DNA from: an uncultured Gammaproteobacteria bacterium
GTDB taxonomy: Bacteria; Patescibacteriota; Microgenomatia; UBA10105; UBA927
DNA: 64,000 bases
Direction: 5' to 3'
Assembly (NCBI GenBank): GCA_964515005.1
Contig: CAZEVT010000001.1
Location: 125,521-189,520, forward strand
Shown here: positions 10,278-62,598 of the stretch, piece by piece
Layout of the letters: every line of letters begins with the position of its first letter
How positions within the stretch are numbered: position 1 is the stretch's first letter
Notes under the pieces: generated by a model
The model's input: only the letters and a program-made list of their open reading frames with translations
Told to the model about the DNA's origin: nothing
The model's database searches: none
Made by a program: the position numbers and the translations under genes

Positions 10278-11243
10278 ATGAAAATACTTGCGCTAGAAAC
10301 CAGTTGTGACGAAACGGCAGCAGCAGTCGTTGAGGATGGAGTCAAAATACTAAGTAACGTGGTGGCTTCATCAACGGCGATGCATGCGAAGTACGGCGGG
10401 ATTGTCCCGGAAGTGGCGGCCCGCGAACAGCTCAAGTGCATGATCCCGACACTAGAAGAAGCGTTAAAAGGACAGCAGTATGACGCAATCGCAGTAACGG
10501 TTGGACCGGGACTCATTGGCTCGCTTCTCGTCGGCGTGGAAACCGCAAAAACCCTAAGCATGGTGACAGGGAAACCCGTCATTCCCGTCAACCATGTCCT
10601 TGCGCACATGTACGCAAATTTCATCCCGAGCGAAGTCGAGGGATCTATTCAATTTCCCGCCATCTCCCTGGTCGTTTCCGGCGGACATACGGAACTTTTC
10701 CTGATGAAATCGACGAAGAATTTGCAGTGGCTCGGTGGAACCCTTGATGACGCGGCGGGAGAAGCGTTTGATAAAACCGCGCGACTTTTGGGATTTAGAA
10801 ACCGGGGAGGACTAGCCATTCAGGAACATGCAAAAAAATCTGCACTCGTACCAAAACTTCCGCGCCCGCTCATGTACGATAAAACGCTAAATTTTTCGTT
10901 CTCTGGGCTTAAAACGGCTATCATTCGCGAATGGAAAAAACAAGAACTTCATGACAAAGCATATATTGCGGGACTGGCTTATGAAGTGCAGGAGGCAATT
11001 ACCGATGTGTTAGAGGCAAAAACAAAAAATGCAGCAGAACAATACGGAGCGAAAAGTATTTTGATTTCCGGCGGCGTTGCGGCAAATCTTCGTCTTAGAG
11101 AAAAATTACCGTCCGCAATTGCCCCAACAATAAATTTATGCACCGACAATGCCGTCTACATCGCAAGCTATGCCTTTTTTAGGGGAACACCAGTGGATTG
11201 GCACAAGATTACTGCAGTTCCGGATCTTTCTGTTGAAGTATAG
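10278..11243 (+). CDS. tsaD: tRNA N6-adenosine threonylcarbamoyltransferase TsaD (Kae1/Gcp family)
   Basis: MKILALETSCDETAAAVVEDG, HAKYGGIVPEVAAREQ and SLVVSGGHTEL are hallmark motifs. Confidence 0.9.
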   Translation: MKILALETSCDETAAAVVEDGVKILSNVVASSTAMHAKYGGIVPEVAAREQLKCMIPTLEEALKGQQYDAIAVTVGPGLIGSLLVGVETAKTLSMVTGKPVIPVNHVLAHMYANFIPSEVEGSIQFPAISLVVSGGHTELFLMKSTKNLQWLGGTLDDAAGEAFDKTARLLGFRNRGGLAIQEHAKKSALVPKLPRPLMYDKTLNFSFSGLKTAIIREWKKQELHDKAYIAGLAYEVQEAITDVLEAKTKNAAEQYGAKSILISGGVAANLRLREKLPSAIAPTINLCTDNAVYIASYAFFRGTPVDWHKITAVPDLSVEV

Positions 11244-11733
11244 CCGCCTCTTCGATGCACCACGGAGAATATGGAGCGGGGTTTGTTTTAATTTCCTCCA
11301 AAAACACGTTCCAGTCAATCCATTTCCAATCATCAACCTCGCTTGGATTCGGTGTCGGAGTGCCGTCAAAATGGCCAACATGAATTGGACAAATTTCGTT
11401 TTCTACGATTCCGTTCTTATCGGCAAACCGGTAGCGATACGGTGCAACTTCTTTTACCTCTGCACCCGTAATTCCCAACTCTTCCTTGAGTCTTCTGGTT
11501 GCCGCCTGGACTGTCGATTCGTTCGGGGCCAAATGCCCACATATGGTATTAGTCCACACTCCCGGAAAAGTTTTTTTACTTGCGGCTCGTTTGGTAACCA
11601 GGAGTTGTTTTTTTGAATTAAAAAGAAATAGGGAAAATGCCCGGTGAAGCGGTGTATCTTTTGTGTGAACTTCATCCTTAGGTTTTGTACCCAGGACGTT
11701 GTTTTGATCATCTACAAGAACCACAAGTTCCAT
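11209..11733 (-). CDS. idi: Isopentenyl-diphosphate delta-isomerase type 1 (Nudix fold)
   Basis: LHRAFSLFLFN...LLVTKRAASKKTFPGVWTNTICGH...GIVENEICPI aligns with E. coli Idi. The 3' end overlaps the tsaD 3' end by 35 nt (convergent). Confidence 0.8.
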   Translation of the reverse strand: MELVVLVDDQNNVLGTKPKDEVHTKDTPLHRAFSLFLFNSKKQLLVTKRAASKKTFPGVWTNTICGHLAPNESTVQAATRRLKEELGITGAEVKEVAPYRYRFADKNGIVENEICPIHVGHFDGTPTPNPSEVDDWKWIDWNVFLEEIKTNPAPYSPWCIEEAAILQQKDPELQ

Positions 11734-11734
11734 G

Positions 11735-11806
11735 TGGGCCAGCTTGGTGACGATCCAAGTACCCCCAACTTATAAGGTTGGTGCTCTACCGATGAGCTAC
11801 TGGCCC
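11735..11806 (-). tRNA. tRNA-Ile with anticodon UAU (72 nt, no encoded CCA)
   Basis: Minus-strand cloverleaf: acceptor GGGCCAG/CTGGCCC, D-arm GCTC-ATCGGTA-GAGC, anticodon stem CCAAC/GTTGG, loop CTTATAA, T-arm CTTGG-ATCGTCA-CCAAG. The T-loop is non-canonical (A54, U58). Confidence 0.6.
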
Positions 11807-11835
11807 AGTGGATCGTATTATACCAAAGACGGGGG

Positions 11836-13224
11836 TTATCCTTTAAGAAGTGCTCCCATTGAGGTCTCCAGCTCAAACGCACGCTTTTTATTGGCGCCGA
11901 AGCATATATAGCCAAACCGGTGTGTCGAGAGCGCACTCACACAGGTGATAACAATGCCCTCACCGGTTTGTTTATCAAAAAGAATGGGGGCAAGAACGGT
12001 TCGGAGCTGATCAAACGTGAGCGCGCGTTTCTTGGGTAATTCAAATAAATTATTAAACAGGATATACGTCCGGTATAAAAAGTCCTTCCCGAACAACTGC
12101 TCAGCCGCGACAAACACGTGTGTGCCGCCGGTTCGTCGGACGTTACTCTCCGTCACATAGAGTTGCCCGTTTTTGGCGGCGAGGAAATCGACGTCATAAT
12201 AGCCACGGTACCCCGATGCCCGGTACTGTTCGCCGATATAAAACCCTGTGTCAATCATCCGGGCAAGCAAACGGTCGGTGACGACATCATTGCCGATTTC
12301 CATACCCTTAAATACTCCCTGGGTTACCCGCATGCCGCCGTAGTACAAGTAGTCTACTCGTCCGTTTTTCAATATTCGAAATTCTACATTGGGAAATCCT
12401 CCGGCAACCGCTGGATTAACCGAGATAAATGATTCAATCACAATAGGAAACATCCCCCAATAATCGTCCTTTTTTAAAACCTCGAGAATGGCCTGTTCGC
12501 ATACCGGGTAATCCGTCGGCAAATCACCTTCTTCAAACAGAAGCACGCCTGATCCTGCATGCCCTTTATTTGTTTTGATAACGACGCCGTGTTCTTTGAT
12601 GTATTTTTTTGCCGCGATTTTGGCGGCATCCACGATACCCATACAAATCATTCCCTCGGGCATGATGAGATCCGGTTCTGCGGCTCGACTTTCCCCAGCA
12701 AGTTGCCGAATACCGGACTTACTTCCGTAGAAATTTACCGTCCATGAATCTTCTTCTTCCGGCGCATCGGGCGTCATGACGCTAAGTCCTTTTCCTTTCA
12801 ACTCATCGACCAAATGAAGAAATTGTTCTGACGTTGTATAACTGGTCAGTACCAATCTCTTGGATCCGTTGGCCGCTGCCATAATTCCCTGCATGACCTC
12901 ATCGTCTTCGAGAATATCTTCGCAGATGACGCCTGAATGTTTTTGCGGCACAAGAATGCGAATACTTCGTTTCCCAAATAACTCCGTGTAGTACCGAAAA
13001 AATGATTCATCAACCTGCTGGGGAAAAATAAAAAGAATATTGTCTTCATCCGCGCAGGTGAATAAATCCCGTTCACACAAATCCGCATTTTCTTTTATTT
13101 CAAACAGTTTGGCCTTCGCGTCGGACATGGCGCTGATGAATGGCCACACGTCCTCCGACATGTTAAAAATGTATACAGTTGTTTCAGGAAATTTTTGTAT
13201 CGCGAGCGGCTCTTCCATTGGCAC
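11836..13224 (-). CDS. ATP-grasp fold ligase of unknown specificity
   Basis: A Gly-rich loop VIKTNKGHAGSGVLLF and the ATP-grasp catalytic signature YDVDFLAAKNGQLYVTESNVRRTGGT. Confidence 0.6.
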   Translation of the reverse strand: MPMEEPLAIQKFPETTVYIFNMSEDVWPFISAMSDAKAKLFEIKENADLCERDLFTCADEDNILFIFPQQVDESFFRYYTELFGKRSIRILVPQKHSGVICEDILEDDEVMQGIMAAANGSKRLVLTSYTTSEQFLHLVDELKGKGLSVMTPDAPEEEDSWTVNFYGSKSGIRQLAGESRAAEPDLIMPEGMICMGIVDAAKIAAKKYIKEHGVVIKTNKGHAGSGVLLFEEGDLPTDYPVCEQAILEVLKKDDYWGMFPIVIESFISVNPAVAGGFPNVEFRILKNGRVDYLYYGGMRVTQGVFKGMEIGNDVVTDRLLARMIDTGFYIGEQYRASGYRGYYDVDFLAAKNGQLYVTESNVRRTGGTHVFVAAEQLFGKDFLYRTYILFNNLFELPKKRALTFDQLRTVLAPILFDKQTGEGIVITCVSALSTHRFGYICFGANKKRAFELETSMGALLKG

Positions 13225-13278: not shown

Positions 13279-15633
13279 TTATAATCTCGCCCGCTCCGAA
13301 ATCTCGGCTTCGATAAGTTCACGCGAACGACCGTACTTGAGGCGCGACAGTTGAATGATTGCTTCAGCAACTTTCGGATTTCTCCCGGCATTCACCGCAC
13401 TCATGTCTTTAGTTAAATCCATGCTGAAAGGCTTCACCGGTTCATTGTGCACATTGGTTTTAATGTACGCATTATATTTATCGATGTTGATGAGATCTGC
13501 CTCATTAAACGTCGGCTGGAATTCATGCTGGAGATAGTTAGCATCCGTCACTCCGACGCGAAACGCAACCACGGAGCCGACATTGCCAAACACCGCGTTT
13601 TTCACTTCCTCTTCCATCTGTCCGATAAATTGATTGGCAACGATCAAATTTAACCTATATTTCCGCGCCTCGGAAAGAATCTGTGCAAAGTCCGGCGTTG
13701 CAAAGTTTTGAAACTCATCAACATAGAGATAAAAGTCGCGCCGCTTGTCCTCGGGAATTTCCTGACGGCTCATGGCCGATATGAGAATGCGGGGAACCAG
13801 AATGAGACCCAAGAAGTTGCTGTTTTCCTCGCCCACTTTTCCCTTGGCAAGATTGACGAGCAGAATTTTCCCCTCATCCATCACTTTACGGAAATCAAAA
13901 CTCGACTCCGATTGTCCGATGATGTTGCGCATGAGTTTATTGGTGACAAACCGGCCGAATTTCGACACGATATAGTCGAGTACTTCCGACTTATGAAAGT
14001 CTGCGGTTTGGGCAATCTGATCCGTCCAGTATCTGCGGATGATGGGATCCTGCAACTTCGGTAACAATTCCTGGACAAATGAACTGTCGGTCAAAACCCG
14101 CACGACCTCGACAAACGTATTGCCGGGTTCCACCATGACGGTCAACATCGCGTTTCGGATGGCGTGTTCAAACCGGGGACCGATAATACCGGTTTTCATA
14201 GGGTCATAGAGCTTGTACATGAGTCCCACAATTGACGTCACGACAAAATGTTTCTGTTCTTCGGTTTTGGCCTCAAGCATGTTAAGCCCCATCGGTCGGT
14301 CGGTGTCCGACGGGTCAAAATAAATAACATCTTCAGCCCGCTCGGGAGGAATGCGGTTGATGACGCCGTCAATAAGATCTCCGTGGGGGTCAACAACGGC
14401 ACACCCCTTGCCTGCCCGAATATCCTGCACGATCATTTCCTCAAGAAGCTGCGATTTTCCGGTACCGGTTTTTCCGATGATGTAGACGTGGCGCCTTCGG
14501 TCTTCATCACTTATGAATATCGGCCGTTCCACTCCGCGGTACCGGGACTTTCCTAAATACAGGCCCTGCGTCGGAATCTGGGACGGAGCGGGCGCGCGTT
14601 TGGCGTTGAGCCAGAAAATATGGGCTGTTTCCACGGATTTGTTCGGCAAATGATAGACGGTTGCCAACTCGTCGCTGTTTAAAACGCTGTACTGCGGCAG
14701 AAATGATGGATTCACCGCCGGAAAGTAACGGTAGATAAAATCGAGCATAAAGAGTTTCTTCATAAACCACGGAAACTTCACTTTCGTAAAATTATTGTGG
14801 TCGCTTGAGAATTGGCCGAAACTCGTCAGGAGATTATCAAGATGCATTTTAGCGCTTTCGTCGGTCGCCGAAGACACCACCAGTCGAATGACCGCGTTAA
14901 ATCCGGGTTTGCCTGTTTTTTGCTCAACTGCTTCAAGGGACTTGGGGTCAATCTTGAAGCTCGCTTTTTCAGGATTTGCCTCATCTTTTTTGGTTTTTGA
15001 AATGTAGGAACGGCCCAGACTTCGCCACTTGCTTCCGGTCGGCTGAATCAGAAGTTGAATAACCGCGCCTTCCCCTTCGCGCATTTTCGCGAGTACCGAT
15101 GTGATCGAGGACAACGGATCGGTGGGTAAATCCCGGAATACGCGAATGGGCATATGGTTGGCGTTTTTGAGGCGAAGCGCGGCAAAAGCGACTTTCCCGT
15201 TTTGACTAAATATCGAATACTCTTCCACTTCTTTTATATCCGCCCCGGGATAAGCCCCGTGAATCTGTTTTTCGACAAGATCCATAAGCTTTCGGGGTAC
15301 CGAAACATAGAAGCGTATATCTTCTTGTCTTGCCACAATCTCAAATGAAAAATGCGGTTGAGGCTTCAAAAAAGACCAAAATCCGCTTTTATAAATGCTG
15401 TAGAGACTGGCAAACATCTGCTCCGCCGCATCTATTTTAATTTCATTCTCGCGCGGAACGGCAATTTGAAGGAGTACATATTCGAGCGACTTCTCTTCCC
15501 TGTCCCGGTATTTCCACAAGAGAAACGCAATATACGAAACAAGCGCAACGCCTCCAAGAACTAGGAGTAAAAAGACAAGCGTGACGCCAAATACTTGCAG
15601 CTGATAGATAATATCTAATGTTTGATCCTGCAT
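13279..15633 (-). CDS. Membrane-anchored FtsK/HerA/TraD-like P-loop ATPase (coupling-protein/DUF87 type)
   Basis: Two N-terminal TM helices. Walker A VYIIGKTGTGKSQLL...VVDPHGDLID resembles TraD/TrwB. Walker B YLYVDEFQNF. ARKYRLNLIVANQ resembles the HerA/VirB4 RKYG motif. Confidence 0.7.
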   Translation of the reverse strand: MQDQTLDIIYQLQVFGVTLVFLLLVLGGVALVSYIAFLLWKYRDREEKSLEYVLLQIAVPRENEIKIDAAEQMFASLYSIYKSGFWSFLKPQPHFSFEIVARQEDIRFYVSVPRKLMDLVEKQIHGAYPGADIKEVEEYSIFSQNGKVAFAALRLKNANHMPIRVFRDLPTDPLSSITSVLAKMREGEGAVIQLLIQPTGSKWRSLGRSYISKTKKDEANPEKASFKIDPKSLEAVEQKTGKPGFNAVIRLVVSSATDESAKMHLDNLLTSFGQFSSDHNNFTKVKFPWFMKKLFMLDFIYRYFPAVNPSFLPQYSVLNSDELATVYHLPNKSVETAHIFWLNAKRAPAPSQIPTQGLYLGKSRYRGVERPIFISDEDRRRHVYIIGKTGTGKSQLLEEMIVQDIRAGKGCAVVDPHGDLIDGVINRIPPERAEDVIYFDPSDTDRPMGLNMLEAKTEEQKHFVVTSIVGLMYKLYDPMKTGIIGPRFEHAIRNAMLTVMVEPGNTFVEVVRVLTDSSFVQELLPKLQDPIIRRYWTDQIAQTADFHKSEVLDYIVSKFGRFVTNKLMRNIIGQSESSFDFRKVMDEGKILLVNLAKGKVGEENSNFLGLILVPRILISAMSRQEIPEDKRRDFYLYVDEFQNFATPDFAQILSEARKYRLNLIVANQFIGQMEEEVKNAVFGNVGSVVAFRVGVTDANYLQHEFQPTFNEADLINIDKYNAYIKTNVHNEPVKPFSMDLTKDMSAVNAGRNPKVAEAIIQLSRLKYGRSRELIEAEISERARL

Positions 15634-16020: not shown

Positions 16021-17547
16021 TCACGTGGCGTACGCAAATATTACTCCTTGCGGCGCAAATTGTGGATAAAAGGTGTTTTTTTTGGCTTTTTTCTGTTTTG
16101 TTTTGCCCAAGTGGGTCAGATTTTGGACCGTCTTCATCCCGCCCTCGCGTATCATCGTAAGATGCCAAATGATCGCAAGGAGTATCCACCGAGTAAGCTC
16201 GCGTTGAACAAGACGTTCCGAAATTGCTCTAATTTTTATTTTGCTATCTTCTAACGGAACATGACTGCGTTTCTGCAGGAAGATCCACCATACAAAAGCG
16301 AGTGCAAAATCGAGTACTTGCTCCCGTTTCCTCTGTTCGGGCCTCCTAAGACGTATCTTATCCATTCGTTCTTTCTTTCGAATAAGTTTTTTGGCAAGCA
16401 TCAGTAAGCGAACAATTTTTTCCGTCTTCACTTTTTCCTTTTGCCTCATTGGCTTGGCTTCAATAACTATTTTTTTCTTTTTCAATACTCTTTTTTCCAT
16501 CAACAAAACTCTTTGCTCCCTCTTTGATTGAACCGTGCGTTTCTTTTCCATTTTTCTTAATACACGCACTTCTTTCTTCATTTTTATTCTTTTTGCTTTT
16601 TTTTCATGTCGGGCAATAGATTTTTTCATTTCGGGAATAATCATTCTAGATCTTAATTTCATTTCGCTTGCCAAAAGTATCTGCGGAGTTTGCAGAGCTT
16701 GAGGCAGTTTTTTCTTATTACGTTTTACTTCCGTATGCTTCTTGTGATCGATAAATTTAACTTCGGCCACCGATTTCGGCTTTTGCCGTAGCATATTTTT
16801 GACACGATCGGTAAATGATTGTTTTAGAGATTGACGCATGTCTTCTACGGGTCTGCTGTGTCGTCTTTCAATATACCTTTGTACAGAACGCACTGTATGT
16901 CCAACCTCCCTCATCGTTTGTTTGCCGGCATAATGAACAACATCAATAGCCTGATTCGCAATATGCACAGGTAATGGCTTATCAGTTAATATAAAGACGT
17001 CTTTCGCAGGTTGAATTTTTAGTAAGTTAGAAAATGAGTCTTTTGCAACGGACTGAATAGCATCAAAACTGTGCTTGTTCTCAGTTGAGATGATAGCGGT
17101 AGTCCCTTTACCTGTATTGTGGTCAAACTTCATTACCCATACATCTTTATAATCCCCATCATTTCTGTGATAACTCGTCACAACGTGTGTCGCACCGTTT
17201 CGAATAGACTCCTGCATCAACATGTCCGCTTGTTCCTGGACCAATGAGTACTGCTCCGGGTTTAATCGACGAGCTTTCTCATGAAGTTCATTTAACGTAC
17301 TTCCGTACTCGGGATAATATACCTCCCCCTTCTCATTCAAAACAAAATTAGGCCCCGGATATTCTGTTTTCCCCGACAGCTCGTTATTGATTGATGCCAT
17401 ATCTTGCTTATATCGGGGACGAAAAAGACGGGCAGTTTCGTGGCGGACTTCTGAGGGTAACCAATCTGTGTGCTGCGAGGCTACCTGCGTGTTTAGTTCT
17501 TCGTAGGATAAAAAAAATGTTTGTCTTTTACAATCGCATGATGGCAT
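16021..17547 (-). CDS. Hypothetical protein with an extremely K/R-rich central region (~130 aa) and C-terminal hydrophobic helices
   Basis: A globular N-terminal domain of about 270 aa. The central stretch KKAKRIKMKKEVRVLRKMEKKRTVQSKREQRV... is highly basic. Hydrophobic segments FALAFVWWIFL and WILLAIIWHLTMI follow. Confidence 0.4.
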   Translation of the reverse strand: MPSCDCKRQTFFLSYEELNTQVASQHTDWLPSEVRHETARLFRPRYKQDMASINNELSGKTEYPGPNFVLNEKGEVYYPEYGSTLNELHEKARRLNPEQYSLVQEQADMLMQESIRNGATHVVTSYHRNDGDYKDVWVMKFDHNTGKGTTAIISTENKHSFDAIQSVAKDSFSNLLKIQPAKDVFILTDKPLPVHIANQAIDVVHYAGKQTMREVGHTVRSVQRYIERRHSRPVEDMRQSLKQSFTDRVKNMLRQKPKSVAEVKFIDHKKHTEVKRNKKKLPQALQTPQILLASEMKLRSRMIIPEMKKSIARHEKKAKRIKMKKEVRVLRKMEKKRTVQSKREQRVLLMEKRVLKKKKIVIEAKPMRQKEKVKTEKIVRLLMLAKKLIRKKERMDKIRLRRPEQRKREQVLDFALAFVWWIFLQKRSHVPLEDSKIKIRAISERLVQRELTRWILLAIIWHLTMIREGGMKTVQNLTHLGKTKQKKAKKNTFYPQFAPQGVIFAYAT

Positions 17548-17640
17548 ATATGCTCCTGCTCGGGATCTGACGGTAAGGAGGAGTTCCGGACTATCACCGT
17601 TGCGGCACAGCGTCTGACTTGCACAGACTTCCTCGGTTCC

Positions 17641-18186
17641 TTACTTTGCTTTGTTAATGCTCCGCCGGGGAATACCAGACCACACTATTTCCTCGACGTT
17701 TGCGTTTTTATTTATAAACCGTGCAAGTTCAAAAAACAAGTCTGACAATCGATTGAGATACTTGATAATTATTGGGTTCGTATGTTGCTTTACTGCAAGG
17801 CGCTCGACACGACGACAAACGTTTCTCATAATATGAATGCGTGCTCCGTCCGTGGACCCACCGGGTAAAATAAAATTGGTGAGCTCAGGTAACGTCTTGT
17901 CCATTTGATCTATCCACCGTTCCATTTCCCCGATCCTCGGCTCAAGAGATGTGAGATCTCCTTTCCAACCCGCAAGCGTACTCCCGATTGTGAACAGATC
18001 TGACTGGATGGTAAGAAGAAATTTCTTGAGTTTGCTATCTTTTATCCCTGCGGCAATAAGACCCACCCAACTATTAAGCTCATCGACAGAACCGTAAAGA
18101 TCAACACGCGGATCGGATTTGGATACGCGTTTCCCTCCAAAAAGAGCGGTAGTACCGGTGTCCCCGGTGCGGGTGTAGATCGGCAT
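17641..18186 (-). CDS. PduO-type ATP:cob(I)alamin adenosyltransferase
   Basis: MPIYTRTGDTGTTALFGG and the helical bundle remainder are typical of the PduO/MMAB family. Confidence 0.85.
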   Translation of the reverse strand: MPIYTRTGDTGTTALFGGKRVSKSDPRVDLYGSVDELNSWVGLIAAGIKDSKLKKFLLTIQSDLFTIGSTLAGWKGDLTSLEPRIGEMERWIDQMDKTLPELTNFILPGGSTDGARIHIMRNVCRRVERLAVKQHTNPIIIKYLNRLSDLFFELARFINKNANVEEIVWSGIPRRSINKAK

Positions 18187-55275: not shown

Positions 55276-56364
55276 CTATTCCAAGTAATCTTTTAATTTT
55301 TTGCTTCGTGAGGGGTGGCGGAGTTTCCGCAAAGCTTTAGCCTCAATCTGACGAATACGCTCGCGGGTGACGCCAAACTGCGCACCTACTTCCTCAAGCG
55401 TTCGTGGTCTGCCGTCTTCGAGGCCAAAGCGAAGAATGAGTACTTTCTTTTCGCGATCCGAAAGCGTGGTAAGCACTTCTTCCATGTGTTCCTTCAGAAG
55501 CTGGCGGCTGGTCTGCTCGTATGGCGTGGGACCTGGGTCGGATATAAAGTCGCCGAGGTGGCTGTCTTCCTCGTCTCCTACCGGGGTTTCAAGGCTGGTT
55601 GGCTCCTGGGATACCTTCATAATCTCCCGAACTTTCGTCACATCCACCTCCATCACCTTGGCAATTTCCTCCGGGCTAGGCTCGCGCCCGAGGTCCTGCA
55701 TAAGGCGGCGGGAGGCCCGGACAAACCTATTGATGGTTTCGACCATGTGAACGGGGATTCTTATGGTACGTGCCTGATCGGCAATTGCGCGGGTGATCGC
55801 TTGTCTAATCCACCAGGTGGCGTAGGTACTAAACTTATATCCCTTTCGCCAGTCGTACTTTTCCACAGCACGGATAAGGCCCTGATTGCCTTCCTGGATC
55901 AGGTCCAGAAGGCTCATCCCGCGGCCGATGTACTTTTTGGCAATGGATACGACAAGACGGAGGTTTGATTCAATCAGCTTCTTTTTGGCACGCTTATCGC
56001 CCTTTTCATAGCGTTTTGCAAGGGATATTTCATCAGCAAAGACAAGAAGCGGGATGCGGCCTATTTCCTTAAGATACATGCGCACCGGATCCGAAACACC
56101 CTCGGCCGAGGCCTTAGCAAGCGCCTCAATCTCCTTCTCGAGATCCTGGATGGATTTACTGGCCTCTTTCTCTATATCCTGGCTTGTGGTCTCAAATACG
56201 TCGATGCCGGCACGAATGAGCTTGTTGTAGAGCTCGTCAAGGAGCACTATGTGTTCTTCGGGTTTGGGATAGAGGAAAAGAATGTCTTCCTGTGTGACAA
56301 AGCCGTTTTCTTTTCCTTCGCGGATGAGGTCAGCCACTGTGGCCAGAATTTTTGTTTTGGTCAT
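55276..56364 (-). CDS. rpoD: RNA polymerase sigma-70 factor RpoD
   Basis: Region 2 is [36 protein letters not shown]. Region 4 is [28 protein letters not shown]. Confidence 0.92.
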
Positions 56365-59064: not shown

Positions 59065-59154
59065 TGGCGGAGAGGGCGGGATTTGAACCCGCGATGAGCT
59101 TGCGCCCATACATCTTCTCCAAAGATGCGCACTAGACCACTATGCGACCTCTCC
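59065..59154 (-). tRNA. tRNA-Ser (GGA), type II with long variable arm, CCA encoded
   Basis: Acceptor GGAGAGG/CCTCTCC. Anticodon stem CATCT/AGATG with loop TTGGAGA. Variable arm ATGGGC-GCAA-GCTCAT. T-arm GCGGG-TTCAAAT-CCCGC. Confidence 0.8.
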
Positions 59155-59181
59155 CTACTTGAATTATACTATACTTAACGT

Positions 59182-60093
59182 ATGTCTTCCCGTACCAAAG
59201 CGCTCATTGCCATCGTTTGTGCCGCACTCCTGTGGTCGACTGCGGGACTTGCAAAAATCATCGTGCGGGAGCTTGACCCGTATATTGCGGCATTCCTCCG
59301 GTTTTTTGTCGCCTCTTTGGTAATCCTGCCGTTTTTTCTCAGGGAGAAAACCAGCAGAAAACACCTCCTCCGTGATCTCGTTCCGTTATCCCTTTTGAGT
59401 GCGGCAAATATACTTTTTTACTACGTGGGACTGTCTGTCTCCACCGCCAACGCAGCAACCCTCATTTATGCAGGCGGACCGCTTCTTACGGCCGTTCTGG
59501 CGCACCGTTTGATCGGGGAACGCTTGAATATGCAAAAAATCACTGGTATTTTATTGGGACTTGTCGGTGTCATTTTTGTCGCACTTCTTCCGGTGGTTGC
59601 AAAAAACGAATCTGTCTCGGCAAATATATACGGGAATGCTTCTTTCGTAGTTGCAACACTCGTCTGGTCTCTTTTTACCATCGGCTCCCGGCGGGCGATA
59701 GCAAGCCGAGGATATTCACCTCTCACGGTTGCCAGTATGTCTATATTTACCATATGTATCGTATTTTTTGTCATCAGCGTTTTTACATTTCAACCACGGT
59801 ATCTGATAACTCTTAAAGAGCCATCTACAATCCTTCTTATTCTTCATCTGGGGACACTGGTCACCGTTGCCACATCGCTCCTGTATCTTTGGGCCATCAA
59901 ACACTCATCCGCAACCACCGCATCGCTTCAAAATTACATCGGACCCGTGTTTTCTATTTTGGTGAATGTCGCGTTCCTGGGCGAAACCGTAACGCCGATG
60001 TTTCTTGTGGGGACCGCGCTCGTGTTTATGGGAGTTATTGTCGTCAGCGGCTCGGGGCTCCTGCAGGAGGTGAGAGATTGGGTAAACAGGTAA
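59182..60093 (+). CDS. EamA/DMT-family transporter
   Basis: Ten TM helices with duplicated EamA domains (LLWSTAGLAKII..., ...LGETVTPMFLVGTALVFMGVIVV). Confidence 0.8.
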   Translation: MSSRTKALIAIVCAALLWSTAGLAKIIVRELDPYIAAFLRFFVASLVILPFFLREKTSRKHLLRDLVPLSLLSAANILFYYVGLSVSTANAATLIYAGGPLLTAVLAHRLIGERLNMQKITGILLGLVGVIFVALLPVVAKNESVSANIYGNASFVVATLVWSLFTIGSRRAIASRGYSPLTVASMSIFTICIVFFVISVFTFQPRYLITLKEPSTILLILHLGTLVTVATSLLYLWAIKHSSATTASLQNYIGPVFSILVNVAFLGETVTPMFLVGTALVFMGVIVVSGSGLLQEVRDWVNR

Positions 60094-60097
60094 TGAG

Positions 60098-60169
60098 CGC
60101 TCTCGGGCAGAGTCGAACTGCCATCACAGCCTCCGGAGGGCCGCGTTCTATCCTTTAAACTACGAGAGC
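60098..60169 (-). tRNA. tRNA-Arg (CCG)
   Basis: Acceptor GCTCTCG/CGAGAGC. D-arm GTTT-AAAGGATA-GAAC. Anticodon loop CTCCGGA. T-arm GGCAG-TTCGACT-CTGCC. Confidence 0.8.
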
Positions 60170-60576
60170 TTGGTGATATCTCCGTCAAGAACCGTTGGCC
60201 GCATGGCGGCAAGTTCAAGCGTATAGATCATATCAGGCACCGGATTGAGAAAATATATTGGCTTTCGAAGATAATACGCATAGCCTACTTCCAAAAACGT
60301 ATTCCCCCCGATGTAGCTTGCAACCCCGTCTTTATCGAAGTTGGCAACCAATACGACATCGGCTTTTTCAATCTTCTTAAAGTGCTCACGAATGAAGTCG
60401 TATTTTGCCTCCGCCGCAAGCCGCTCCGCGACCGTTTTGGGCTTTACAAATCCTTCTTGTTCAATAAGATCAAAACTTTTCGGAACAAACACCGTGTGAC
60501 CTTTCGCTTCCAACGTACGTTGCAAGTCTCTCATTTCTTTATGAAACGTCAAGCTTCCGCAGAGTGCTATGTTCAT
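60160..60576 (-). CDS. Nucleoside 2-deoxyribosyltransferase-like (NDT/PF05014-like fold) protein
   Basis: IGGNTFLEVGYAYYL matches the NDT catalytic-Glu region (D.G...E.G.A). The 3' end overlaps tRNA-Arg by 10 nt. Confidence 0.55.
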   Translation of the reverse strand: MNIALCGSLTFHKEMRDLQRTLEAKGHTVFVPKSFDLIEQEGFVKPKTVAERLAAEAKYDFIREHFKKIEKADVVLVANFDKDGVASYIGGNTFLEVGYAYYLRKPIYFLNPVPDMIYTLELAAMRPTVLDGDITKLS

Positions 60577-60986
60577 ACCAGTTTTTGCAAATCACCGTTG
60601 AGAATCACCGGCTGCATGGAGTGCATCTCGACGCTGTAATCCATCTCCGGGACGGAGTAAAGTAGGTAAATCTTCTTGTCCAGTCCAAACGCGTGCCCCA
60701 TCTCCAAAAAGGTATTGCCGCCGATATATCCCGGGACACTTTTCTTCTCATAATTCAAAACGACAATTGCGTCGGAACGCTCAATCTTTTTGAAGTGTTC
60801 ACGGATAAAATCGTGCTCAATTTTGGTGGTAATCCTTTCCTCATCTGTGTCCATATATGTCTCATTTTGCGCAAGAATGGTCAAGTCTTTGGGCACGAGC
60901 ACCATATGGCCTGCCTCTTCCAGCATGTACTGGATCTGGGCCATCTCATGATGAAACTGCATGCTTCCGCAGATGGTTATGGTCAT
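60573..60986 (-). CDS. Nucleoside 2-deoxyribosyltransferase-like protein, tandem paralog
   Basis: MTITICGSMQFHHEM...IGGNTFLEMGHAFGL parallels the downstream copy. The start was trimmed to an internal ATG to clear tRNA-Ser. Confidence 0.55.
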   Translation of the reverse strand: MTITICGSMQFHHEMAQIQYMLEEAGHMVLVPKDLTILAQNETYMDTDEERITTKIEHDFIREHFKKIERSDAIVVLNYEKKSVPGYIGGNTFLEMGHAFGLDKKIYLLYSVPEMDYSVEMHSMQPVILNGDLQKLV

Positions 60987-61022
60987 ACATTCGTCGCTTA
61001 AGTAAGCGTAAGCGGAGGGGGC

Positions 61023-61110
61023 GAGACTCGAACTCGCAAGCCTCCTTACGGAGGCAACAGTTTTCGAGACTGTCCGGATAACCATTCCCAGCACCCCTCC
61101 AGTGGCGCGC
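61023..61110 (-). tRNA. tRNA-Ser (CGA), type II
   Basis: Acceptor GGAGGGG/CCCCTCC. Anticodon stem ACAGT/ACTGT with loop CTCGAAA. Variable arm GCCTCC-GTAA-GGAGGC. T-arm GCGAG-TTCGAGT-CTCGC. Confidence 0.8.
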
Positions 61111-61112
61111 CC

Positions 61113-61189
61113 GGCGGGAGTTGAACCCACAATCGTCAGATCCGCAATCTGATGCTCTATCCAGTTAAGCTACGGGCGCAGTGGAGCTT
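61113..61189 (-). tRNA. tRNA-Arg (GCG), CCA encoded
   Basis: Acceptor GCGCCCG/CGGGCGC. D-arm GCTT-AACTGGATA-GAGC. Anticodon stem TCAGA/TCTGA with loop TTGCGGA. T-arm GTGGG-TTCAACT-CCCGC. Confidence 0.75.
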
Positions 61190-61190
61190 A

Positions 61191-61571
61191 TTATACCGCA
61201 AAACGAAGCTTTGGGATGCCTTGGTAGTGTTTTTTATTGCGTGTGGCCATCTTGGCTCCGATGGAAACGCTGGTAGCACCGACAATCAAATCAGCAAGGG
61301 CTGCGTCAGTGGTATGATCCCGCTTTGTCTGACCTGCAAATTCTGCAAGCTCAGTTCCGAGGGGAATAACAATAAAACCCTCAATAAGTTCCTTTAGTTT
61401 GCCAACAACCGCTTTTGACGACTTTCCGGCAAATAATTCAAGCACAGTCACTGCGGAAAGATATAATTCAACTTTGCCGTCCCGCTGGGCTTCAACAAGC
61501 TTCACTAACCCGCCACCGCCGGTTCGCAAGTAGTCGATGATAACATCACTATCAATAAGTACTTTCGTCAT
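61191..61571 (-). CDS. vapC: PIN-domain toxin (VapC-like)
   Basis: MTKVLIDSDVIIDYL. It overlaps the upstream antitoxin gene by 4 nt. Confidence 0.7.
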   Translation of the reverse strand: MTKVLIDSDVIIDYLRTGGGGLVKLVEAQRDGKVELYLSAVTVLELFAGKSSKAVVGKLKELIEGFIVIPLGTELAEFAGQTKRDHTTDAALADLIVGATSVSIGAKMATRNKKHYQGIPKLRFAV

Positions 61572-61834
61572 GAAAATATTGGCCGGCGCCAATAACGTTT
61601 TTCCCGGACTGTGCGGGTCCAGGCCGCTTCATTCTTCAAGACCCCCTTCAAACCCGGAAGCACGTGGGTAAGAATATAGTCTGCCTTGCCGGCCGCATCA
61701 TATCTCACCGGCACAATCTTCACGATCCGTTTCCCTTCTTTTTCCACTTCAATAATATCGCCTGTTTTGGCGACCCGCTCCATAATGGCAAATATATCTT
61801 TTCTCAACGCCGTGATTGGGAGAATATAGTTCAT
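61568..61834 (-). CDS. Type II antitoxin (Phd/YefM-like)
   Basis: MNYILPITALRKDIFAIMERVAKTGDIIEV. The start is ambiguous (ATG at 61832-61834 or at 61850-61852), and both lie inside the palindrome. Confidence 0.55.
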   Translation of the reverse strand: MNYILPITALRKDIFAIMERVAKTGDIIEVEKEGKRIVKIVPVRYDAAGKADYILTHVLPGLKGVLKNEAAWTRTVREKRYWRRPIFS

Positions 61835-61855
61835 ATGTACACTAGTGTACATATG
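61832..61855. promoter_or_regulatory. 24-bp perfect palindrome CATATGTACACTAGTGTACATATG at the antitoxin 5' end (candidate autoregulatory operator)
   Basis: Self-complementary by inspection. It shares the ATATGTACA half-site with the 23043-23060 palindrome. Confidence 0.5.
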
Positions 61856-61868
61856 GGATAACCATTTG

Positions 61869-62408
61869 TCAAGCGGGCGGCTTCTCCAGGGGGATTTTTT
61901 CGGTAATCCAGTGGGCTGCGTTATCTACCCAGGTTTTTTCGGGCTCTTCACGGAACGGGATATATTCGGAAACAAGCTCCCGGACGTGTGTTTTGTCTTC
62001 TGTTCCCAGAAGGATAATAATCCGCGTGCCCATAAGCGGTCGCAAAATAAGCATGGTTTGCCCCCACTGCTCTTCAAACCAGAAGTCGACAAGCTCTTCC
62101 CAGCGGTAAAAGTGTCCCGCAGACTCAACGCCCAAGTTCGTTATTCGGTGGGTTACCTCCTCAGGCGGCACGGTGGAGAGAACATAGATTAAAAATACGA
62201 TGGAAACGACCGCGGCAATAAGGAGGAATTCACGGGCAAAAACAAGAATAATGATAAGAAGAAACACAATCGCCCCGATATTAGTGAAGTATTCTTTGTC
62301 CCGACGTTTGAAAAGCCGCGACGGCGAGCTCCATGCAAGTAGTACTTCTTGCCGCACTTCTTTTGCTCCTGGGGCAGGCATGTTGTCCATGGGGTTAGTA
62401 TATATCAA
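61869..62408 (-). CDS. Hypothetical membrane protein
   Basis: Two central TM helices (IGAIVFLLIIILVFAREFLLIAAVVSIVFLIYVL). Confidence 0.4.
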   Translation of the reverse strand: MIYTNPMDNMPAPGAKEVRQEVLLAWSSPSRLFKRRDKEYFTNIGAIVFLLIIILVFAREFLLIAAVVSIVFLIYVLSTVPPEEVTHRITNLGVESAGHFYRWEELVDFWFEEQWGQTMLILRPLMGTRIIILLGTEDKTHVRELVSEYIPFREEPEKTWVDNAAHWITEKIPLEKPPA

Positions 62409-62427
62409 AAATCAACGAAACAAAATG

Positions 62428-62509
62428 CGGAGGGTACAGGAGTCGAACCTGTTAGCCCTTGCGGACATTGGTTTTCAAGACCAACGCATTACCGTCCTGC
62501 CCACCCTCC
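62428..62509 (-). tRNA. tRNA-Ser (UGA), type II
   Basis: Acceptor GGAGGGT/ACCCTCC. Anticodon stem TTGGT/ACCAA with loop CTTGAAA. Long variable arm. T-arm ACAGG-TTCGACT-CCTGT. Confidence 0.7.
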
Positions 62510-62510
62510 G

Positions 62511-62598
62511 TGGCGGAGAGTGTGGGAGTCGAACCCACTCGGGACTATTCATCCCGCGAGTTTAGCGAACTCGTGCATTACCGTTCTGCCCACTCTCC
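62511..62598 (-). tRNA. tRNA-Ser (GCU), type II, CCA encoded; atypical anticodon loop (C at position 33)
   Basis: Acceptor GGAGAGT/ACTCTCC. Anticodon stem CGAGT/ACTCG with loop TCGCTAA. Variable arm CGGGA-TGAATAG-TCCCG. T-arm GTGGG-TTCGACT-CCCAC. Confidence 0.65.

Follow-up and report, generated by a model that had tools for sequence, protein, structure and literature searches.

How does a bacterium read the isoleucine codon AUA when the tRNA that it encodes for this codon carries a plain UAU anticodon, and what should be made of such a tRNA when the pair that closes its T-loop has been turned around? Both questions are raised by a 72-nucleotide (nt) gene at positions 11735-11806, on the minus strand, of a 64,000-nt stretch of contig CAZEVT010000001.1 (assembly GCA_964515005.1), which was deposited as an uncultured Gammaproteobacteria bacterium and is placed by GTDB in the Microgenomatia of the Patescibacteriota. 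We refer to this whole 64-kb stretch as the window. A first-pass annotation made from its letters alone had called the gene a tRNA-Ile with a UAU anticodon in a CTTATAA loop and a swapped T-loop, ATCGTCA, and had offered two readings, namely, an unusual strategy for decoding AUA or a tRNA-like element at the edge of an adjacent module. We conclude, with a probability of roughly 0.75, that the gene is a functional chromosomal tRNA-Ile(UAU) of the Microgenomates group of the candidate phyla radiation (CPR)/Patescibacteria, an AUA decoder with a compensated T-loop inversion that most likely replaces tRNA-Ile2(CAU) and the lysidine synthetase TilS.

A conserved tRNA-Ile(UAU) gene

The annotation of the gene as tRNA-Ile(UAU) is supported by ARAGORN, by Rfam family RF00005, by its predicted fold, and by 34 distinct orthologs. 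ARAGORN, the kind of tRNA finder proposed as a check, reports a tRNA-Ile with anticodon tat at 11734-11806 on the minus strand, which agrees with the anticodon originally read from the sequence and adds the strand to it. The RF00005 model is matched along its whole length (positions 1-71 of 71) with 58.4 bits, where the gathering threshold is 29, and with an E value of 4.8e-10. In minus-strand orientation the RNA is GGGCCAG UA GCUC AUCGGUA GAGC A CCAAC CUUAUAA GUUGG GGGUA CUUGG AUCGUCA CCAAG CUGGCCC A. Its minimum-free-energy fold is an exact cloverleaf with 7-, 4-, 5-, and 5-bp stems (-29.2 kcal/mol, z = -2.88); no CCA is encoded, and the discriminator A73 lies at 11735.

We aligned 34 distinct syntenic orthologs, each 72 nt long and without gaps, and counted pairs per column pair; these sequences are phylogenetically related, so the counts that follow are not counts of independent events. 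The anticodon U34 A35 U36 (11772-11774, minus strand) sits in the loop C32 U33 U34 A35 U36 A37 A38 at 11776-11770, and all of these columns are invariant in the alignment. The window tRNA has U8, A14, G18, G19, U33, the G53-C61 pair, U55, and C56, and every one of these is invariant across the orthologs except U55, which is C in 4 of them. Reportedly, the identity set of Escherichia coli tRNA-Ile comprises A73, C4-G69, U12-A23, C29-G41, A35, U36, A37, and A38. The isoleucine-type elements A73, C4-G69, U12-A23, A35, U36, A37, and A38 are all present in the window tRNA; U12-A23 and A73 are invariant among the orthologs, and 28 of the 34 have C-G at 4-69.

Overall, 98.4% of the alignment cells fall in standard pairs, and 13 of the 21 stem pairs have changed on both sides. 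The covariation score is 0.487, compared with 0.126 for shuffled alignments (none of 500 shuffles reaches 0.487) and 0.04-0.13 when the pairing partners are slid.

An inverted T-loop and a remodeled core

The T-loop, A54 U55 C56 G57 U58 C59 A60, occupies 11748-11754 on the minus strand, with A54 at 11754 and U58 at 11750. Because its stem consists of five Watson-Crick pairs around a 7-nt loop, only a single T-arm register is possible. In place of the canonical T54-A58 reverse-Hoogsteen pair this register has A54/U58, and the elbow nucleotides beside it are kept (G53-C61, U55, C56, G57, and G18/G19 of the D-loop). The motif CTTATAAG is self-reverse-complementary, yet ATCGTCA is readable on the minus strand only. 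General surveys of T-loops give the closing pair as Y-A (pyrimidine-adenosine).

The inversion first noticed in the window is thus genuine, and it is shared: the 54-58 pair is U-A in 17 of the 34 distinct orthologs, A-U in 16, and C-A in 1. The T-arms of loci L340 and L225 differ at positions 54 and 58 alone (UUCGACC versus AUCGUCC). Judged from such sequences, the change from U-A to A-U has the form of a clean compensatory inversion, that is, a compensated double substitution. The inverted loop occurs in 21 further tRNA-Ile(UAU) genes that we fetched (duplicates and the phage-like array L335 counted), as well as in L175, whose 5' end is masked. Its recurrence is well beyond chance.

The T-loop has not changed by itself. 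In the window tRNA, U15 (11792, minus strand) forms an inverted Levitt pair with A48 (11760, minus strand), where the canonical pair would be G15-C48 or A15-U48. All 16 inverted orthologs have a purine at 48, as U15-A48 in 7 (the type found in the window), as G15-G48 in 8, and as C15-A48 in 1, and all 16 have C59. The orthologs with canonical loops and those with C55 carry G15-C48 or A15-U48, and L340, which combines G15-G48 with a canonical T-loop, is the lone intermediate. In the structure of yeast tRNA-Phe, nucleotide 59 stacks on the 15-48 pair; a joint change of 15-48, 59, and 54-58 would therefore be structurally coherent.

Distribution of the inverted loop

Within the genomes sampled, the inversion belongs to this isoacceptor. 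All seven other tRNAs of the window (Asn, two Arg, and four Ser) have UUCGA or UUCAA loops with canonical U54/A58, and none of the seven other tRNAs in the inversion-carrying CPR loci L173, L238, L255, and L303 is inverted. We made two large pattern scans, one of GTDB genomes and one of Joint Genome Institute (JGI) metagenomes, whose frequencies are samples among the matches listed. The metagenome scan, which ignored the T-loop, found at least 117 tRNA-Ile(UAU) genes with the same D-arm; among the 117 listed, about 80 have a canonical loop (UUCGA or UUCAA), 15 have UCCGA (C55), 12 have the inverted AUCGUC[A/C], 3 have A54/A58, and 2 have C54/A58. Against these 12 of 117 with AUCGU stands 1 of about 270 other tRNAs in the metagenome loci, a tRNA-His in a phage-like array. 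The GTDB scan used a T-loop-specific pattern with 15 specified bases and returned mostly chance matches; 10 of the 120 matches listed are real tRNAs, and all 10 are tRNA-Ile(UAU) with AUCGUCA or AUCGUCC loops. Eight of these come from metagenome-assembled genomes (MAGs) labeled Gottesmanbacteria, Microgenomates, Saccharibacteria, or Patescibacteria, and two from MAGs labeled Gammaproteobacteria. The taxonomic breadth of the inversion is undersampled by this genome scan.

When the proteins encoded next to the window tRNA were used as tblastn queries, the same gene order was recovered in about 40 loci, and these include tRNAs with canonical, C55, C54, and inverted loops. Since tRNAs with all four kinds of loop sit in one conserved gene order, we regard them as orthologs whose slot has been inherited vertically. 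Among the matches listed, the closest locus is that of Gottesmanbacteria RIFOXYB1_FULL_47_11, a member of the Microgenomates group, in which the VirD4-like protein is 89% identical and the ligase 80% identical to those of the window. Two contigs labeled as Gammaproteobacteria MAGs, L131 (CAYWVJ010000038.1) and L163 (CAZSTG010000001.1), have the CPR order of VirD4-like, ATP-grasp, tRNA-Ile(UAU), idi, and TsaD genes, with proteins 59-90% identical to those of the window and of a Gottesmanbacteria MAG. Given this CPR synteny, their Gammaproteobacteria labels or their binning are probably wrong.

Departures at position 55 follow another pattern. The near-universal U55 is replaced by C or G in many CPR tRNAs, scattered among Gly, Phe, Pro, Thr, Val, and other isoacceptors; an initiator tRNA in L173 (4176-4246) has a UGCGA loop, and C55-type orthologs of the tRNA-Ile(UAU) itself occur in L305, L349, L252, L311, L320, L359, and others. 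Transfer RNAs with C55 or G55 must lack pseudouridine-55, and their spread over many isoacceptors indicates that T-loops are somewhat relaxed throughout the CPR, whereas the 54/58 inversion is not general there.

Outside the CPR, the inverted T-loop is a recurrent natural variant. AUCGU loops in phage tRNAs span several isoacceptors, and A54/U58 is no more frequent in phage tRNA-Ile(UAU), with 3 of about 110 compared with 7 of about 404. In phage L111 (IMGVR_UViG_3300042463_001197), at least five tRNAs have A54/U58, namely, tRNA-Ile(GAU), Trp, Val, and two Lys, and the same pair (in AUCGU or AUCAU) is found in the phage or phage-like loci L062, L106, L035, L079, and L096 and in the tRNA arrays L335 and L356. 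The presence of AUCGU in phage tRNAs shows that the variant works in translation and that no general link ties it to the UAU anticodon. A general linkage between UAU and A54/U58 had been a candidate of ours, and we dropped it because the inversion is not enriched in phage tRNA-Ile(UAU). The CPR-type tRNA itself had no match in the viral collection.

AUA decoding and the lysidine route

A comparison of codon usage, which had been suggested as a check on the gene, makes the demand for an AUA decoder plain. ATA accounts for 260 of the 1308 isoleucine codons (20%; 13.6 per 1000 codons) in 65 open reading frames (ORFs) that cover 89% of the window, and a share of this size calls for an efficient decoder. 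The U34 of the window tRNA-Ile is encoded in the genome; the anticodon is not CAU, and the tRNA is therefore without the C34 that accepts lysidine.

Our search for the lysidine route covered 74 kb of this genome, the 64-kb window and 10 kb beyond its start (L365), on a contig of at least 433 kb. ARAGORN found no tRNA-Ile2(CAU) among the eight tRNAs of the window. Neither the window ORFs nor the related loci (about 0.85 Mb) matched a regular expression for the PP-loop motif SGGxDS, a tblastn search with the TilS of E. coli had no hit in the window or the related loci searched, and no PP-loop domain occurs among the called genes of the 10-kb flank. That flank holds no TilS, IleRS, or tRNA gene, and IleRS was not found in the window either.

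A census of complete genomes, so far as Table S2 of PMC13011429 gives it, points the same way. ARAGORN labels every CAU tRNA as Met, and we took its Met counts as CAU counts. All 12 complete Microgenomatia genomes have two or more tRNA-Ile and no more than two CAU tRNAs; Dojkabacteria, ABY1, and many Paceibacteria mostly have two of each. In the same table the Saccharimonadia (4 rows), the SR1-type lineage (JAEDAM01), and some Gracilibacteria mostly have one tRNA-Ile and at least three CAU tRNAs, although one Saccharimonadia row has two tRNA-Ile. These reciprocal counts fit a replacement of tRNA-Ile2(CAU) by tRNA-Ile(UAU) in the first group. So far as this table goes, they suggest that several large classes of Patescibacteria decode AUA by tRNA-Ile(UAU) and not by lysidine, a statement that we did not find in the literature searched; nor did that search return a relevant paper on lysidine or tilS in Patescibacteria.

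The unusual AUA strategy proposed in the first-pass annotation therefore survives in part. A TilS-independent route is supported indirectly by the conserved gene, its promoter, the 20% share of AUA, the lack of any tilS-like sequence in the window, its 10-kb flank, and the related loci, and the class census as given in that table, but direct UAU decoding is the norm in the Microgenomates lineage and not an oddity.

Expression and proposed mechanism

The gene appears to have a promoter of its own. An extended -10 box, TGGTATAAT, lies at 11817-11825 on the minus strand; 10 nt separate it from the 5' end of the tRNA, and it falls within the 29-nt gap that follows the upstream stop codon. The pattern TGNTAnAAT is conserved among relatives: of 16 related loci that we examined, 11 have it equally far from the tRNA; L195 has TAGTACAAT, which lacks the TG. 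Generic scans of the window for -35/-10 elements and terminators stayed at background level, and the extended -10 box became visible by comparing relatives only. The window includes a gene for RpoD (55276-56364).

Downstream, the ATG of idi (11733-11731) begins 1 nt past the discriminator A73, giving ...CUGGCCC-A-C-AUG, and the junction (11731-11735) leaves no room for a Shine-Dalgarno sequence. An A-C-AUG-GA junction to idi recurs in L300, L245, and L306; L337 also has A-C-AUG, but there it opens a different ORF, and the spacers of other relatives are 3-26 nt long. Given so tight a junction, idi is probably cotranscribed with the tRNA and translated from a nearly leaderless message. The layout of the junction suggests that 3' processing of the tRNA would free an essentially leaderless idi mRNA, in the manner of mitochondrial tRNA punctuation.

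We envision the following course of events. Starting at the tRNA's own extended -10 promoter, transcription would probably run on into idi; the tRNA would be cut after A73 and completed by the addition of CCA. IleRS would then charge it, and the common AUA codon would be read by U34-A pairing, so that the UAU tRNA most likely stands in for the tRNA-Ile2(CAU) and TilS route, both members of which are presumably absent from this genome. As all other elbow nucleotides are retained, the loop most likely keeps the T-loop fold, closed by what would be the mirror image of the reverse-Hoogsteen pair. A54 and U58 remove the substrates of the m5U54 and m1A58 modifications and probably impair TruB, and the window tRNA would thus be expected to lack m5U54, pseudouridine-55, and m1A58.

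Genomic neighborhood

The window is ordinary chromosomal DNA of a CPR/Patescibacteria bacterium. About 49% of its bases are G or C, and its composition does not shift at the tRNA. It encodes RpoD, DnaG, BipA, two penicillin-binding proteins, type IV pilus genes, a class II ribonucleotide reductase (RNR), and TsaD; the 10 kb beyond its start (L365) encode MetRS, TatD, UvrD, and others. Proteins of the window also occur on JGI metagenome contig Ga0136847_10841376 and on an NCBI contig of 433 kb.

On the minus strand, the tRNA follows a gene for a VirD4/TraD-like coupling ATPase (13279-15633; DUF8128 and TrwB/TraG-D_C domains by Pfam and NCBIfam) and, directly upstream, a gene for a pre-ATP-grasp/PGM1-like ligase (11836-13224; Pfam PF18604), and it precedes idi (11209-11733), which encodes isopentenyl-diphosphate delta-isomerase (NCBIfam equivalog NF002995, 225 bits against a cut-off of 127, residues 2-169). 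The tsaD gene (10278-11243) lies on the opposite strand and converges on idi. The slot conserved in about 40 CPR loci consists of VirD4-like, pre-ATP-grasp, tRNA, idi, TsaD, CTP-transferase, and VanW genes. By tblastn, the ATPase keeps its position next to the tRNA in these loci at 62-92% amino acid identity and behaves as a core gene, not as part of a conjugative element. Copies of the ligase that are 53-80% identical lie upstream of the orthologous tRNAs and served as a synteny anchor. A functional link between ligase and tRNA, which we also considered, found no support, as the ligase also lies beside orthologs with canonical loops and is gone from distant lineages that keep the tRNA.

Other features of the window are worth recording for their own sake. 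An AdoCbl-II (B12) riboswitch at 17573-17644 on the minus strand (38.7 bits; gathering threshold, 36.5) comes directly after genes for NrdR, class II RNR, and a PduO-type cobalamin adenosyltransferase. Directly downstream of it is an ORF at 16021-17547 (minus strand; 459-508 amino acids) without a Pfam or NCBIfam match, which may encode an uptake or binding protein under B12 control. A tRNA cluster at 59065-62598 on the minus strand packs tRNA-Ser with GGA, CGA, UGA, and GCU anticodons and tRNA-Arg with CCG and GCG anticodons into 3.5 kb of one strand. One of its members (61014-61100, minus strand) scores as tRNA-Sec in Rfam (49.6 bits; gathering threshold, 47) and as tRNA-Ser(cga) in ARAGORN; its anticodon is CGA, not UCA, and it is almost certainly a long-arm tRNA-Ser with a false tRNA-Sec assignment.

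Weighing the explanations

Several observations weigh against our conclusion that this is a functional AUA decoder with a compensated inversion that replaces the lysidine route. The tilS gene or a tRNA-Ile2(CAU) could lie beyond the 74 kb read. Table S2 of PMC13011429 counts tRNAs by amino acid and not by anticodon, such that the UAU identity of the second tRNA-Ile is our own reading of it. The inverted tRNA of L156, a locus labeled Saccharibacteria, sits uneasily with the complete Saccharimonadia of that table, which look TilS-type; either the label of L156 or the generalization to Saccharimonadia may be imperfect. At 29-41 the window tRNA has A29-U41 and not the C29-G41 of the E. coli identity set, and this pair varies freely among the orthologs. 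A54-U58 might, alternatively, form a cis Watson-Crick pair that closes a triloop. Finally, neighbor-joining trees of the VirD4-like protein, alone or with the pre-ATP-grasp protein, are star-like, with inverted-loop lineages interspersed among UCCGA (C55) lineages on short internal branches, and a single origin of the inversion is therefore not established.

Whether the inversion means anything is a separate matter from whether the gene works. It may be no more than neutral drift, compensated and fixed once in a lineage of small populations, with no functional meaning and with the gene still a normal AUA decoder. We put this at somewhat short of even odds, and it overlaps with the conclusion that we favor, which does not depend on adaptiveness. 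Other CPR tRNAs are relaxed as well, as C55 and G55 in many isoacceptors attest; the T-loop motif tolerates several 1-5 pairs, with C-A nearly matching U-A in riboswitch T-loops (bioRxiv 10.1101/2022.12.26.521914); and AUCGU in phage tRNAs of many specificities is compatible with translation. What drift leaves unexplained is the restriction to one inverted tRNA per genome and the coupling to 15-48 and 59. Those same facts favor a more ambitious alternative, which we consider unlikely: that the inversion, purine 48, and C59 are together a selected redesign of the elbow and core, specific to this isoacceptor, that lets a plain-UAU tRNA work safely without TilS. Such a redesign might hide tRNA-Ile(UAU) from the readers of the T-loop (TrmA/TrmFO, TruB, and TrmI) or from some other factor, or it might stiffen or retune the body of the tRNA such that U34, with little or no modification, reads AUA and not AUG; it is to these two versions taken jointly that our low estimate applies. 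In their favor, tRNA-Ile(UAU) is the sole inverted isoacceptor in the sampled genomes, orthologs from sister lineages depart from the canonical T-loop in various ways (A54/U58, C55, and C54), and positions 15-48 and 59 have changed in step with the inversion. E. coli TruB is said to need U54, U55, and A58 in the T-arm, which we count on the same side. A UAU anticodon also brings a problem of misreading AUG, which Mycoplasma mobile has reportedly met by coadaptation of IleRS and ribosome (PMC3575796). Against a redesign, C55 and G55 extend over so many isoacceptors that constraint on the T-loop may be weaker in the CPR generally, and the A54/U58 of phages occurs in many isoacceptors and is no commoner in tRNA-Ile(UAU).

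Two further explanations are far less probable. An odd T-loop could be damage in a decaying tRNA pseudogene, and since T54 and A58 are near-universal, a double departure from them does look like decay when only one sequence is at hand. The AUCGU core is, however, identical in 16 distinct orthologs, the variable stems are all compensated with no broken pairs, and the changes at 54 and 58 always come together, with a single C-A intermediate. The promoter box is conserved, AUA codons are abundant, and the complete genomes of the class, as far as PMC13011429 tabulates them, have no third CAU tRNA that could decode AUA; we rate decay as very improbable. Less credible still, and rejected by us, is the reading that developed from the second one in the first-pass annotation: a tRNA-like element or attachment site that borders a mobile or conjugative module. 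It drew its appeal from the coupling-protein-like ATPase 1.5 kb upstream and from the frequent use of tRNA genes as integration sites. The order of ATPase, tRNA, idi, and tsaD is nonetheless constant in about 40 loci at 62-92% protein identity, which bespeaks a vertical core arrangement and a conserved housekeeping slot. The 3' half of the tRNA has no second copy in the window at up to 3 mismatches, no integrase-family domain occurs among the adjacent ORFs scanned, and neither a viral-collection match nor a GC break marks the site.

Known systems and significance

The gene belongs to a type already known, the TilS-independent tRNA-Ile(UAU). This strategy has been described in M. mobile and inferred for Bifidobacterium and Neorickettsia (PMC3575796). 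Like tRNA-Ile2(UAU) of M. mobile, the window tRNA has an encoded UAU and would read AUA without lysidine, and both are found in organisms with small genomes. The two differ in phylum, and the adaptation in M. mobile consists of Arg865 of IleRS plus an adaptation of the ribosome; the A54-U58 inversion and purine 48 are absent from the text of PMC3575796. With the tRNA-Ile2(CAU) and TilS system the window tRNA shares the codon AUA, the amino acid, and similar isoleucine-like features of the D-arm and acceptor, and it differs in its UAU anticodon and in the lack of tilS from the DNA examined. The tRNA-Ile(UAU) of eukaryotes and of Nanoarchaeum has the same anticodon and reads the same codon in other domains of life. 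In eukaryotes this tRNA has an intron, and its anticodon is modified to pseudouridine-A-pseudouridine. To our knowledge, no T-loop inversion is known in the eukaryotic or the Nanoarchaeum tRNA-Ile(UAU).

The closest structural parallels come from eukaryotes, whose initiator tRNA and tRNA-Ala(AGC) also have a purine at 54 (PMC7566577, PMC7912444). In eukaryotic tRNA-Ala(AGC), A54/A58 and R15/A48 are invariably found together (PMC7566577), much as the change at 54 in the window tRNA goes with a purine at 48. These eukaryotic A54 tRNAs keep A58, which gives a longer A-A pair, whereas U58 in the window tRNA makes a true inversion. According to PMC7566577, the unusual pairs that it describes are not seen in bacteria or archaea, and we could not find a paper that describes the A54-U58 variant of the T-loop with purine 48.

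In practical terms the consequence of the finding is modest, as this is an ordinary and correctly predictable tRNA gene. Its interest lies in the near-universality of T54-A58, around which the enzymes of the T-loop (for m5U54, pseudouridine-55, and m1A58) and models of the tRNA elbow have been built. A clade-wide change from U-A to A-U in one isoacceptor, together with an altered 15-48 pair, is a natural experiment on what the T-loop fold needs and on what TrmA, TruB, and TrmI recognize. If the adaptive redesign were true, decoding fidelity or enzyme avoidance would be naturally encoded in a T-loop, and the most conserved loop of tRNA would have a second viable architecture. The suggested decoding of AUA by tRNA-Ile(UAU) in Patescibacteria, for its part, touches the question whether "essential" genes such as tilS are truly universal in bacteria.

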